Shown in pieces: positions 9,157-47,578 of a stretch of 64,000 nt of DNA. A program made the position numbers and the translations under genes. Numbering within the stretch: position 1 is the first letter of the stretch; every line of letters begins with the position of its first letter. Source of the stretch: Selenomonadaceae bacterium (lineage in GTDB: Bacteria > Bacillota > Negativicutes > Selenomonadales > Selenomonadaceae); the NCBI GenBank assembly GCA_017476005.1, contig JAFVEM010000046.1:16000-79999 (forward strand), in the 5' to 3' direction. The notes beneath the pieces were generated by a model. It saw nothing but the letters and a program-made list of their open reading frames with translations. It made no database searches and had not been told where the DNA came from.

Positions 9157-10386
9157 ATGAGCGATACCAAAATAAAACAGATTGCCCCGGAGGAGGCGGC
9201 TGTATTCACCGCCGACCATTGCCTCTCCTGCACCTCCTGTATGTCCAGTTGCCCGGTGATGGAAGCCACCAAAGAATATCGTGGGCCGAAACTCGTCGGC
9301 CCTGCCCATAGCCGCATGCATTTTTCGCAGGAAGATGAGGAAGATAGCCTCGACTTTTGTTCCAACTGCAAGAGTTGCGACCGCGCTTGTCCTTCGGGGG
9401 TGGCGGTTTCTACTCTCAATATGCTCCAACGTGGGGAGTACTACAAAACCCATGCCCATTCTCAGCGCGACGAGATGCTCGCTCACGGGGAAAAAATGGG
9501 CAAGCTGGTACACTCGCTTCCCTTGGGGGCTACCTGCGCCAATATCGGCATGAGAATCGGCAAGGCTTTGGGTATCTTTGGCCTTTTTGGCTTGGCGGTA
9601 GAAAGGGATATGCCTAGCTACGCCGCCAGTACCTTCAAAAGCCTGTATAAAAATATTTCCCAGAAAAAATCCGACAAAAAAGTGGTTTTCTTCCCCGGCT
9701 GTTTCATCAACGACAACGAGCCGTCGGTGGGCGAAGCCATGGTGAAGGTCATGCAGGTCAACGGCTATGAAGTCCTCCTCGACGATAAATTCTGCTGTTG
9801 CGGTTCTCCCATGGTGGTGACGGGCTATATTGACGAAGCCAAGGAACACGCCGACCGAAACGTGGAGCGCATTCTCTATTGGAAAAATCAAGGCGTCCCC
9901 GTGGTGGCGGCTTGCACCAGTTGCTCTTTGATGCTCAAAAAGGAGTACGAAGAACTCTTTAACGAGGCCAAGATGAAACAGGCCGCCGCCAATGTCTATG
10001 ATCTCTTTGAATTTCTCGATATTCTCGCCGATAAGGGCGAACTGAATACCAATTTCCAGAGCGTGTCCGCAAAACTCACCTATCATGTGCCTTGTCACCT
10101 GAAGGCGCAAGGCTTCGGCGTACCGGCGGCGAGCATTTTGCGCGACGTCCCCGGTGTCACCGTAGAGCTGGCGGATGCCGGTTGTTGCGGTATGTCGGGC
10201 AACTACGGTTTCAAGGGCGATAAATACGATATTTCCATGAAAATTGGGGAGAAACTCTTCTCCAGGATAAAAGAACAGGCCGCAGACTCGGTAATTTGCG
10301 ATTGCGGCACCTGTAGGTTACAGATTCGACACGGGACGCAGGCTAAGGCTTGTCACCCCGTTGAGATATTGGCCAAGGCTTACTGA
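9157..10386 (+). CDS. glpC: anaerobic glycerol-3-phosphate dehydrogenase subunit C (Fe-S / CCG-domain)
   Basis: Two ferredoxin-type clusters (CLSCTSCMSSCPV, CSNCKSCDRACPSG) plus Cys-rich CCG repeats. Confidence 0.85.
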   Translation: MSDTKIKQIAPEEAAVFTADHCLSCTSCMSSCPVMEATKEYRGPKLVGPAHSRMHFSQEDEEDSLDFCSNCKSCDRACPSGVAVSTLNMLQRGEYYKTHAHSQRDEMLAHGEKMGKLVHSLPLGATCANIGMRIGKALGIFGLFGLAVERDMPSYAASTFKSLYKNISQKKSDKKVVFFPGCFINDNEPSVGEAMVKVMQVNGYEVLLDDKFCCCGSPMVVTGYIDEAKEHADRNVERILYWKNQGVPVVAACTSCSLMLKKEYEELFNEAKMKQAAANVYDLFEFLDILADKGELNTNFQSVSAKLTYHVPCHLKAQGFGVPAASILRDVPGVTVELADAGCCGMSGNYGFKGDKYDISMKIGEKLFSRIKEQAADSVICDCGTCRLQIRHGTQAKACHPVEILAKAY

Positions 10387-10400
10387 GAGCTTGGTTTAAG

Positions 10401-10543
10401 TTTTTTTGGGGTTTCACCCCAAACCCCAGCAGGGAAATAATTTCCCTGCACCCTTAATAAATTTATTACGGGGTGCAGGGACGCAAGTCCCTGCCGGAGT
10501 CAAGAGGTAGCGCCTCTTGTGGGGTATGGGGCAGCGCCCCATG
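10401..10543. repeat. full-length stacked-hairpin intergenic repeat (copy A, five hairpin modules around an AT-rich palindromic core)
   Basis: GGGGTttcACCCC / GCAGGGAAAtaaTTTCCCTGC / core TTAATAAATTTATTA / GCAGGGAcgcaagTCCCTGC / CAAGAGGtagcgCCTCTTG / ATGGGGCagcGCCCCAT. Related copies lie at 25083, 29861 and 47428. Confidence 0.85.
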
Positions 10544-10559
10544 TGTAGGAAAGGAGTAA

Positions 10560-12065
<1,506 letters not shown>

Positions 12066-12070
12066 GTAAA

Positions 12071-12129
12071 AAACTTGAGGCTCCGCCTCAAACTCCGCCT
12101 AAGGGCATAGCCCTTAGGAATCCCGGTTG
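12071..12129. repeat. type-2 hairpin repeat (TTGAGGCtccGCCTCAA + CCTAAGGGCataGCCCTTAGG + AATCCCGGTTG)
   Basis: The 34-nt segment 12096-12129 recurs perfectly at 13024-13057. Confidence 0.8.
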
Positions 12130-12182
12130 ATTTTAGGTATTGCTAACACGTTTGGTTTATGCTAACATACCTAGATTGAGTT

Positions 12183-12992: not shown

Positions 12993-12999
12993 GTATAAA

Positions 13000-13057
13000 A
13001 CCGTGAGGCGCTGCCTTGCGCTTCGCCTAAGGGCATAGCCCTTAGGAATCCCGGTTG
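13000..13057. repeat. type-2 hairpin repeat, second copy
   Basis: 13024-13057 is identical to 12096-12129. Confidence 0.8.
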
Positions 13058-13061
13058 GGAT

Positions 13062-13106
13062 GCCAAACAGGCTCTGCCATTTAGCGGCAGAGCCTGTTTG
13101 GCGTTT
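13062..13106 (+). terminator. 17-bp perfect hairpin after glpF
   Basis: GCCAAACAGGCTCTGCC-atttagc-GGCAGAGCCTGTTTGGC followed by GTTTG. The U-tract is weak. Confidence 0.6.
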
Positions 13107-13283
13107 GAGAAAGGGAGGGGGAACCGCGAAGCGGTGGGAGGGTTCCGGCAAACTTCACTTATTCAAAGTAACCGGTTGTGAAAATAGTCTAGGTGTTGTC
13201 GAGACAAATATGCTCTTGGATGGCTTAGGAGAGACTTTATTGTTGGGTGACTTTTGAATGAAACTGGCTCTCAGCTTTAGCCA

Positions 13284-25048: not shown

Positions 25049-25082
25049 CAAACAATGACAAAAAATAAATTTTTTAAAGTCT

Positions 25083-25146
25083 ATTAAGGGGTGCAGGGGA
25101 AATTATTTCCCCTGCTGGGGTTTGGGGTGAAACCCCAAAAAATAAA
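25083..25146. repeat. half-copy (left arm, inverted) of the stacked-hairpin repeat (copy B)
   Basis: GGGGTGCAGGGGAAattatTTCCCCTGCTGGGGTTTGGGGTgaaACCCCAAAAAA is the reverse complement of modules 1-2 of copy A. Confidence 0.8.
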
Positions 25147-29847: not shown

Positions 29848-29860
29848 ATTTTTAACAGAA

Positions 29861-29950
29861 TTATTATGGGGTGCAGGGGCTTTAAGTCCCTGATGGGAGT
29901 CCAGAGGGCAAAGCCCTTTGGTGAGGTTTGGGGCAAAGCCCCAATAAAAA
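29861..29950. repeat. half-copy (right arm) of the stacked-hairpin repeat (copy C)
   Basis: GGGGTGCAGGGGctttaagTCCCTG / CCAGAGGGCaaaGCCCTTTGG / TTGGGGCaaaGCCCCAA, collinear with modules 3-5 of copy A. Confidence 0.8.
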
Positions 29951-45991: not shown

Positions 45992-47425
45992 ATGCAAGAA
46001 AATTTTACGGTCTCGCCTTGGCATGAGGAATGTGGGGTTTATGGAGTTTATTCTCGCGCCGAGGACGTGGCGGAAATGACTTACTACGGCCTTTACGCTC
46101 TGCAACATCGAGGACAGGAGAGCGCCGGTATCGCCATTACCGACGGCGCTTGGATGGATGTCAATCGTGGCATGGGGCTGGTAGGCGAAGTCTTCAGGCA
46201 TCAGCTCCCCCACATGGAGGGACAATATATTGCCATCGGCCATGTGCGCTACTCCACCACCGGCTCCAGTCTTTTGAGCAATACCCAGCCGCTCATGGTG
46301 AATTTTTCCGGGGGGAAAATCGCCCTCGCCCATAACGGCAACCTCACCAACGCCGCCGAAATTCGTCACGAGCTGGAAGAGAACGGCACTACCTTTCAAA
46401 CTACCATTGATTCGGAAGTCATAGTCAATTTAATTGCTCGCTCTCGCGCCGCCACCATCGAAGAGCGCATCAGAGAAAGCCTTAGCAAGATAAAAGGGGC
46501 TTACTGCCTAACGCTGATGACGGAGAATAAACTCATCGGCGTTAGGGATCCTCAAGGCTTCAGGCCTCTTTGCCTAGGGAAAACCGAGGCCGGCTCTTGG
46601 GTAATTTCCTCCGAAAGCGCCGCCCTTGATGTAGTCGGAGCAGAATTTATCCGGGACGTGGCGCCGGGAGAAATGGTGGTCATTGACGACGAGGGACTCC
46701 GTTCCTATGAATTTGCCACCAAGGAAAAACGCGCCGCCTGCGTCTTTGAGTACATTTACTTTGCCAGACCCGATTCGATAATTGACGGTCAAAGCGTCCA
46801 CGAGGCCAGATTCATGATGGGGAGGATGCTGGCCAGAGAAAGCGGCTGCATGGGTGATATTGTGATTTCCGTGCCGGATTCCGGCAATACGGCGGCATCG
46901 GGCTTTGCCGTGGAGGCTAAAATCCCCTACATGGAAGGTTTGGTGAAAAATCGTTACGTTGGCCGCACCTTCATTCAACCCTCCCAAAAAAAACGGGACA
47001 AGGCGGTGCAGTTAAAACTAAATCCCATTCGCTCCGTGGTGGCGAGTAAAGCCGTCATTTTGGTAGATGATTCCATCGTGCGCGGCACCACCAGCGGCAA
47101 AATCGTCAAGATGCTGAGAAACGCCGGCGCCAAAGAAGTGCATATGTGCGTAAGTTCTCCCCCCATCGGTTTTCCTTGCTACTACGGCATTGACACTTCC
47201 ATTCGCAAGGAGTTAATCGCCGCCTCCAAAACAGTGGAGGAAATCTGCGCTTATATCGGCGCCGATTCCCTGCATTTTTTGTCTTTGGATGGTTTAAAGG
47301 CCGCTTTCTCTGCCGCCCAAGCGGAAAACATGTGCTACGCCTGTTTCAACAGCGCTTACCCGGTGGAGCAGGGAAAATGTCCTCGGAGCGCCGGAAAATA
47401 CGTTTTCGAGCCTAGGAAATGTTGA
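45992..47425 (+). CDS. purF: amidophosphoribosyltransferase
   Basis: The propeptide ends in EECGVYG (Ntn cysteine), with the PRPP loop VILVDDSIVRGTT. ATG 45992 gives a 13-residue propeptide. Confidence 0.9.
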   Translation: MQENFTVSPWHEECGVYGVYSRAEDVAEMTYYGLYALQHRGQESAGIAITDGAWMDVNRGMGLVGEVFRHQLPHMEGQYIAIGHVRYSTTGSSLLSNTQPLMVNFSGGKIALAHNGNLTNAAEIRHELEENGTTFQTTIDSEVIVNLIARSRAATIEERIRESLSKIKGAYCLTLMTENKLIGVRDPQGFRPLCLGKTEAGSWVISSESAALDVVGAEFIRDVAPGEMVVIDDEGLRSYEFATKEKRAACVFEYIYFARPDSIIDGQSVHEARFMMGRMLARESGCMGDIVISVPDSGNTAASGFAVEAKIPYMEGLVKNRYVGRTFIQPSQKKRDKAVQLKLNPIRSVVASKAVILVDDSIVRGTTSGKIVKMLRNAGAKEVHMCVSSPPIGFPCYYGIDTSIRKELIAASKTVEEICAYIGADSLHFLSLDGLKAAFSAAQAENMCYACFNSAYPVEQGKCPRSAGKYVFEPRKC

Positions 47426-47427
47426 GC

Positions 47428-47578
47428 ATGGGGCTTTGCCCCATACCCCACCAAAGGGCTTTGCCCTCTGGACTTCCAGCAGGGACTTTCGCCCCTGCAC
47501 CCCATAATAAGTTTATTAAAGGGTGCAGGGGGATTATCCCCCTGCTGGGGTTTGGGGCAAAGCCCCAAAAATAAAAAT
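47428..47578. repeat. full-length stacked-hairpin repeat, inverted relative to copy A (copy D)
   Basis: Its reverse complement is collinear with 10401-10543, module by module, with paired (compensatory) stem substitutions. It begins 3 nt after the purF stop. Confidence 0.85.

Follow-up and report, generated by a model that had tools for sequence, protein, structure and literature searches.

The repeat in the spacer between glpC and glpK (copy A, positions 10400-10548) consists of two units of a single repeat family joined by their tails. We put at roughly 0.6 the probability that copy A is a member of a REP/BIME-like family of small, non-coding, non-autonomous, selfish insertion elements. Positions refer to the window, the whole 64,000-nucleotide stretch of Selenomonadaceae DNA analysed here, which comes from a 2.71-Mb draft genome (76 contigs, 51% GC, 93.6% completeness). 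The sequence-only reading had described a MITE/BIME-like composite palindrome at four sites. A genome-wide count with nhmmer gave 208 units in 172 elements, and the description was borne out for a dispersed, mostly intergenic family that is not confined to those sites but has about 170 elements in the genome. Perfect hairpins of the family type numbered 355, compared with 18 in a shuffled genome. The elements probably spread as DNA, through folded single-strand hairpin intermediates.

Copy A lies between the stop codon of a glpC-like gene (TGA, 10384-10386; the gene encodes CCG and 4Fe-4S domains) and glpK, which has a Shine-Dalgarno sequence AAGGAG at 10551-10556, an ATG at 10566 and FGGY domains. 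The six features read earlier in this spacer were all located where they had been placed. The left unit (10400-10463, minus strand; 58 bits, E 1e-18 with the covariance model R1) is a two-hairpin form that begins 14 nt past the glpC stop and directs its A/T tail at the centre. It contains H1, GGGGTTTCACCCC (10408-10420), flanked by a T-run and AAA, and H3, GCAGGGAAATAATTTCCCTGC (10429-10449). The A/T core TTAATAAATTTATTA (10454-10468) corresponds to the overlapping A/T tails of the left and right units. The right unit (10461-10548, plus strand; R1 76 bits, E 4e-25) is a three-hairpin form with H3, GCAGGGACGCAAGTCCCTGC (10475-10494), after the tail and a GGGGT linker, H2, CAAGAGGTAGCGCCTCTTG (10501-10519), after a GGAGT linker, and H1, ATGGGGCAGCGCCCCAT (10526-10542), after another GGGGT linker. 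Such inequality (two and three hairpins here) is frequent between the units of a pair. The two arms had been regarded as imperfect inverted copies of each other, and indeed both matched R1 in opposite orientations. The palindrome of about 145 bp that had been called a full copy is real, but the basic unit is the half copy, a tail with two to three hairpins, two of which are joined tail to tail. As RNA, the spacer folded far better than its shuffled versions on both strands (z = -5.7 on the plus and -8.7 on the minus strand), none of 200 shuffles being as good. At the strain level, an exact look-up of GlpK retrieved at least one Logan contig with an identical copy of the element.

A repeat search in the window revealed related copies at 25.1, 29.9 and 47.4-47.6 kb as well as a divergent pair around glpF. 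Four copies, two full and two half, had been counted from the sequence; these stand as two pairs and two singles, one short and one full, but R1 added two divergent singles for a total of six elements. All six are located between co-directional genes, as had been stated for the first four. The second tail-to-tail pair (47422-47574, between purF and purM) is inverted in orientation relative to copy A, with a three-hairpin unit at 47422-47512 (minus strand, R1 102 bits) and a two-hairpin unit at 47511-47574 (plus strand, R1 65 bits), and shares the inverted repeats I2, I3 and I8 with copy A. The full three-hairpin single (29859-29950, plus strand, R1 102 bits) is found between metH and the pyruvate kinase gene, its H1 ending 24 nt before the ATG, and the short single (25079-25144, plus strand, R1 55 bits), composed of tail, H3 and H1 without H2, lies between a TPM-domain gene and an orphan gene. 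The terminal hairpins are close to the next start codon, as had been noted, although the CCCC ends 22-39 nt before it rather than 24-40 nt. The two divergent singles, both on the minus strand and members of the direct-repeat family D1, belong to subfamily B. One (12069-12161, R1 41 bits) starts 4 nt past the glpK stop and has a CCTAAGGGC..GCCCTTAGG hairpin, and the other (12997-13082, R1 23.6 bits, E 1.5e-6) starts 5 nt past the stop of glpF, the upstream gene, which encodes a MIP domain. Subfamily B has the layout TCAACCGGGATTCC-AAAGGGC..GCCCTTT-GGCCGCCGGAGGCAAAA and about 30 copies in the genome. The idea that a direct repeat bracketing glpF was a glpF-specific duplication was rejected, these being two members of the genome-wide subfamily. 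A third, unrelated repeat family (…CACCGCCCTTCGGGC…CCTCCCCTGAAAGGGGAGG…GGGGGAACCGCGAAGCGGTGG…) occurs at about 13100-13140 of the window and, in relatives, at L162 4700-4900 and L221 3010-3200; in sister species it fills the same spacers as the main hairpin family.

From alignments of 60 to 84 genome copies, the repeat unit measures about 83-92 nt and consists of an A/T tail, roughly AAAAATTTATTAY on the G-rich strand, followed by two to three GC hairpins. H3 (GCAGGGG..CCCTGC; GCAGGGGC-loop-GTCCCTGC and variants) is preceded by GGGGT. H2, sometimes missing, follows a (C/T)GGGAGT linker and reads CCAGAGGGC-AAA-GCCCTTTGG or, in a shorter form, CAAGAGGC-AGMG-CCTCTTG. H1 (TTGGGGC-AAA-GCCCCAA, then an A-rich run) follows a TGGGGT(T) linker. 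Every hairpin is headed by a linker GGGGT, GGAGT or GGGT, and all hairpins of one unit carry the G-rich arm 5', only whole units being inverted, without exception tail to tail. Across 169 units, the 14 nt located 5' of the G-tag were a loose A5-T3-W2-T-W-A-H with G nearly absent at -12 to -5; a strict target motif at this place was rejected, only a loose T-W-A-H being present.

Stems were conserved beyond chance in the 60-sequence alignment, where 91.5% of the cells formed standard pairs against 86.6 ± 0.4% in shuffles. The pairing in H2 is understated since the MAFFT alignment places its short form out of register. Ten pairs had changed on both sides, the covariation score was reached by none of 500 shuffles, and sliding the 3' partner columns by one to three positions made the pairing collapse to 26-66%. 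The G-rich single-stranded linkers were conserved as much as the stems; the invariance at GTGCAGGGG is partly built in because the 60-copy set was chosen for that word. Pairwise identity between copies had a median of 74% (94.5% to the nearest neighbour, 97.4% at most), with no two identical in this genome, and the modules were mosaic, 33 H3 x H2 combinations occurring among the 60 copies. The copies are old and mosaic, their hairpins kept by compensatory changes while modules shuffle between copies. Folding of the G-rich strand was slightly better than that of its complement (-21.5 vs -19.1 kcal/mol).

A second hairpin element of about 50 nt, (T)AAGCAGACTCT(T)AGGnnnnnnnCC(G)TAGAGGTCGCTTAT plus a short variable tail, is present in about 45 copies in the same genome (e.g. 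G000:C36:94057, C5:24246 and C68:62403) and in none inside the window. Nearly all copies are placed in an H1, H2 or H3 loop or in the space between two hairpins of the main family, where the element extends the host stem coaxially. It had no Rfam match.

Of the 172 elements, 136 are singles and 36 are pairs. Every pair is joined tail to tail, with the A/T core in the centre, and no head-to-head or tandem arrangement was found within 80 nt. Based on a crude gene call, 85% of the elements lie between co-directional genes, and divergent and convergent spacers are under-used for their length. The H1 end always points toward the gene border. Median distances to the genes were 5.5 nt from the stop codon to a pair and 27.5 nt from the pair to the following start. 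Singles whose G strand is the sense strand leave 30 nt to the start codon and about 5-10 nt to the Shine-Dalgarno sequence, and singles in the opposite orientation begin 9 nt past the stop. The G-rich strand was the sense strand in 73 of 115 singles (73:42). A replication-strand bias was set aside, being only 39:18 and confounded with gene direction.

As judged from sequence comparison, the units are insertions relative to orthologous sequence, and spacer occupancy varies between sister species. In polA of the same genome, a whole unit is inserted in frame (C47:60071-60145, locus L188) between the exonuclease-like and polymerase parts of DNA polymerase I, adding about 36 residues (…YEASQKTKFIKGAGELFPCRSQEAEPLVEFEAKPQE…). 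The insert was absent from all five aligned PolA orthologues, and the homologues of relatives matched only from just past it. This is the one clear coding insertion among the 172 elements; other apparent cases were rejected as two genes fused by crude ORF calling. The glpC-glpK interval of a relative from another genus (G003) holds a small ORF and no element. We compared the orthologous spacers of two sister species, G082 and G105, which are about 90% identical and belong to another copy-rich genus. At least three spacers had the main family in one species and an unrelated repeat family in the other, and one spacer contained a full pair in G082 and only a lone H1, TTGGGGCAGCGCCCCAA, in G105. 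The same relation of pair to lone H1 was seen when the window's own genome was compared with G041, which is the same genome as G082. Because H1 is itself palindromic, both H1 copies in a pair also count as direct repeats, and a lone H1 is therefore either an excision scar or a landing site. A clean filled-versus-empty site with a target duplication was not found among the compared orthologous spacers, nor was a target-site duplication visible at the element ends, whose flanks are simply T-rich and A-rich. Orthologous spacers were often occupied in both the window's genome and a distant relative, by different modules; besides an insertion hot spot, this could mean selection for a structure there. 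A separate 151-nt insertion, which the sister species lacks and which has no relation to the hairpin family, was seen at L209 ~600-750 (G105:C60) relative to L162 4259, directly 5' of the Shine-Dalgarno sequence of a gene.

The elements carry no promoter or terminator. The earlier view that they are not simple terminators agrees with the absence of terminator-like sites in 10200-10700, and H1 has a T-run upstream and an A-run downstream on both strands, the reverse of an intrinsic terminator. A promoter role was also rejected, as promoter-like sites were no commoner than chance. No Rfam family reached its gathering score, whether for the window or at nine distant loci. The best permissive match was Clostridiales-2 (RF02937), with 23.6 bits against a gathering score of 58.6, and the best consensus copy of the hairpin family did not match this model. 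A six-frame search of the 93.6% complete draft for Y1_Tnp/RAYT (PF01797) found none, and the gene was likewise lacking in 8 of 14 other copy-rich genomes, among them all four other Selenomonadaceae; the family is therefore without the partner that defines REP/REPIN elements. The predicted proteins included no multi-copy transposase from a parent IS, although IS copies collapse in draft assemblies and such a partner could be missing from this one, with its 76 contigs and 93.6% completeness. A search of the draft assembly for a REPtron-like gene bracketed by inverted units found only ordinary operon genes. In the literature, to which this search was confined, there was no sequence-string match and no description of the family, and REP surveys had no GGGGT-tagged family.

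Dispersed palindromic repeats as such are already known, and the family resembles several of them. Like REP, BIME and REPIN sequences, it consists of short, GC-rich, imperfect palindromes in hundreds of extragenic copies, mostly at gene ends inside or after operons. It likewise occurs as singles and inverted doublets, has a short conserved tag beside the hairpin, is mosaic and is co-transcribed. The high-copy, GC-rich, extragenic imperfect palindromes of 20-40 nt by which REP/BIME sequences are recognised were found here in 208 mostly intergenic units. REPIN doublets are mobilised by RAYT (TnpA_REP) transposases, whose gene is typically flanked by repeats, and in this respect the family differs, with no Y1/RAYT gene in its own genome or in the eight other copy-rich genomes mentioned above. 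REP sequences conserve a GTAG or CGTC tetranucleotide at one palindrome end (PMC3733652), whereas the tag here is GGGGT or GGAGT. The hairpins of a unit here have the same orientation and an added A/T tail, while REP/BIME palindromes alternate in a cluster; unlike in REP, BIME and REPIN, pairs are joined only by their tails; and the sequence layout is common to different phyla, unlike the lineage-specific sequences of REP.

Other known repeats share parts of this design. BOX of Streptococcus pneumoniae (boxA-boxB-boxC), together with RUP and SPRITE, represents modular intergenic hairpin repeats of variable number that are transcribed with their neighbours, and we know of no dedicated transposase for BOX. 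The family is like BOX in having few hairpin-forming module types in variable number, but the sequences are unrelated, and BOX is limited to few streptococci and lacks the tail-to-tail rule and the G-rich linkers. Correia/NEMIS in Neisseria and ERIC/IRU in Enterobacteriaceae are imperfect palindromes of 100-150 bp inserted between co-transcribed genes; they fold in the transcript and can change how it is processed. The palindrome of about 145 bp between co-directional genes resembles them, although it is made of two separable units, unlike Correia and ERIC, and the 26-bp terminal repeats, TA duplication and IHF site of Correia were not found here. Rickettsia palindromic elements (RPE) offer a parallel for a palindromic repeat in frame in an essential gene, here polA, but their sequence is unrelated and only one clear coding insertion exists among the 172 elements. 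The 5' part of the Clostridiales-2 consensus, AuAAAauaGGGggUGcaGgGG...CCcCugCCG, equals the A/T tail and H3, while the remainder of the model has no match. As for the terminal inverted repeats of MITEs, pairs do end in inverted H1, but 136 of 172 elements are singles with unlike ends. The family is set apart by its tag, the same-orientation multi-hairpin unit, the strict way in which units pair, the lack of RAYT, a second element that sits within its loops and the cross-phylum layout.

Under the reading we favour, that of a selfish REP/BIME-like family, a trans-acting enzyme other than a Y1/RAYT transposase would read the G-rich linker and hairpin. The family would have been acquired sporadically by horizontal transfer and then expanded within the lineage, its elements surviving only where nothing breaks, between a stop codon and the next Shine-Dalgarno sequence. 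The tail-to-tail rule would agree with units that insert in one fixed polarity to the left or right of an A/T target, or that move as pairs. Units may subsequently lose arms, and a pair may collapse to a lone H1 by recombination of its two H1 palindromes. The elements would be co-transcribed because they are located inside operons, and the strong hairpins at the ends of neighbouring cistrons would be a by-product of this co-transcription. Counted against this explanation are the failure to find a mobilising enzyme or a clean filled-versus-empty site with a target duplication, the absence of two identical copies and the 73:42 sense bias for the G-rich strand. Moreover, linkers as conserved as stems and a layout common to many phyla are not predicted by plain selfish decay.

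The sense bias and the placement bring up a possible, though doubtful, alternative: the elements could be primarily cis-acting RNA structures of polycistronic mRNAs, acting as intercistronic decay barriers or processing modules. REP in E. coli malEFG uncouples the stability of neighbouring cistrons. Here, hairpins by the stop would block 3'-to-5' exonucleases, those before the Shine-Dalgarno sequence would block RNase J-type 5'-to-3' decay, and the A/U-rich core of a pair would be an RNase Y/E-type entry site, with the pair uncoupling the stabilities of glpABC and glpK. Such a function would suit elements found almost only inside co-directional gene strings and without terminators, with H1 5-9 nt past stops or about 5-10 nt before Shine-Dalgarno sequences, and the excess of G-rich sense strands (73/115) points the same way, although both orientations are common and a pair contains both. 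On the G-rich strand, G.U wobbles (H3 46/60, H2 31/60) accompany the slightly better folding noted above (-21.5 vs -19.1 kcal/mol). The re-occupation of spacers in relatives also favours a role in RNA, but an unrelated repeat can fill the same place in a sister species, the family is missing in 95% of related genomes and one unit lies within the polA coding sequence. The best sub-threshold Rfam match, Clostridiales-2, is a hairpin followed by a Shine-Dalgarno-like motif, which also favours this reading. A structural barrier, on the other side, needs no conservation of linker and stem sequences across phyla with different RNase sets.

The distribution of the family is sporadic. High copy numbers were found in about 6 of 201 Selenomonadaceae genomes (40 genera), with presence and absence inside one genus. 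The copy-rich ones were the window's genome, three species of genus g24 and one of two species of g3, and Selenomonas infelix had about 11 further copies on plasmid-like contigs. On small contigs of S. infelix (L064, L174-L183), an iteron-like A/T region and a small rep-like ORF follow the two-hairpin unit at a distance of about 100 nt; about ten near-identical short contigs carry the unit and look like the origin region of a plasmid population. A BLAST search of PLSDB plasmids gave no match to the element. Among phage sequences, the one weak match was MT838051.1, a 'Bacteriophage sp.' from human faeces (L184 401-468); this unannotated, viral-labelled scaffold of 5.8 kb has three hairpins in the same layout, GGGTCAAGGGAC.., GGAGTCCAGAGGC.. 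and GGTTCAAGGGC... In 16 other families of the class, at most one weak match was detected.

Beyond the class, R1 at E <= 1e-8 matched 3 of 150 evenly drawn Clostridia and 2 of 101 Alphaproteobacteria; the copy-rich genome on which each sample was centred is among those counted. Twelve cross-phylum genomes each had from 13 to at least 150 R1 matches. The exact linker and H3 pattern (GGGTGCAGGGG N4-9 CCCTGCYRG) was found in at least 120 stretches, compared with about 26 expected in the whole collection as estimated under uniform composition. The matches listed came from Chloroflexota, Alphaproteobacteria, Desulfovibrionaceae, Polyangium, Nitrospirota, Clostridia, Synergistaceae and others, and in 74% of them a second GGG/CCC hairpin began at most 14 nt downstream, against 2.5% of random segments from the same loci. 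These cross-phylum matches are not a GC artefact. Each lineage has its own composite built from common words, namely GTGCAGGGG, GTCAAGGGG, GTCCAGAGGG and GT(N)TGGGGC. The family had been called unrecognised from its sequence, which is correct as far as Rfam is concerned, but it is not peculiar to this organism, the hairpin layout occurring in many phyla. In Ktedonobacteraceae/Chloroflexia (L032, L043, L107), a GGGTGCAGGGG..CCCCTGCCGGGGTGCGGGGTGTCCCCGC hairpin pair lies within an element of about 130 nt, which has its own terminal inverted repeats, CTGACATCCACTCATAA…TTATGAGTGGATGTCAG, and is therefore a MITE carrying the hairpins. The cross-phylum reach of the layout is unusual, since MITEs were about 97% genus-specific in a survey of 183,232 genomes (PMC11602168). 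This reach would suit a larger scheme that we consider rather unlikely, in which the repeats are the Selenomonad branch of a horizontally spreading superfamily of 'GGGT-tagged' hairpin arrays, mobilised by a non-RAYT enzyme, with H1 as landing pad or scar and the second element parasitising the loops. Linker and stem words kept across phyla would then mirror the specificity of the enzyme.

Lone H1 hairpins also allow for site-specific or hairpin-apex-directed recombination, instead of cut-and-paste, with the H1 palindrome TTGGGGCnnnGCCCCAA as the attachment site, which we find improbable. Integration of a circular or hairpin intermediate would take place at a lone H1, excision would leave one, and the nested element would use the same chemistry on loops. 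Two independent comparisons did show a pair versus a lone H1 at orthologous sites, and about 15 lone H1 hairpins with the same T-run and A-run flanks occur in the window's genome; a lone H1 is, however, equally explained as a deletion scar between two near-identical palindromes. The confinement of the roughly 45 second elements almost entirely to H1, H2 and H3 loops or the space between hairpins, and the lack of a visible target duplication at element ends, are consistent with recombination. Single units have one H1 only, so they cannot be simple H1 x H1 products, no candidate recombinase was found, and the usual tyrosine-recombinase crossover region would not fit in a loop of 3 nt.

DNA-level host roles, as proposed for E. 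coli BIMEs, are very improbable here, whether as binding or cleavage sites for gyrase, nucleoid proteins or priming/replication factors or as plasmid-type single-strand initiation signals: the two inverted hairpin blocks around an A/T centre resemble BIME-1/RIP (REP-IHF site-REP; PMC3733652), the linkers are conserved and the S. infelix unit sits beside iterons and a rep-like gene on small plasmid-like contigs, but presence is sporadic among close relatives, the copy A core read by eye has no IHF-type consensus, one unit is inserted within polA and the spacing in the genome follows operon spacers with no regular pattern.

Small palindromic repeats make up a large share of bacterial intergenic DNA, and a means of spread has, to our knowledge, been established only for the REP/RAYT pair. 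The main family described here combines hundreds of copies without RAYT, a strict pairing rule and a nested second element. With a layout found in about 1-2% of genomes in distant phyla, when most MITEs are genus-specific (PMC11602168), it is a tractable system in which to look for a further mobilising enzyme. In annotation, the family accounts for spurious ORFs, contig breaks, the glpF 'direct repeats' and regulatory-looking operon spacers. If the hairpins affect mRNA decay, the family would modify operon expression generally in these rumen and gut bacteria.
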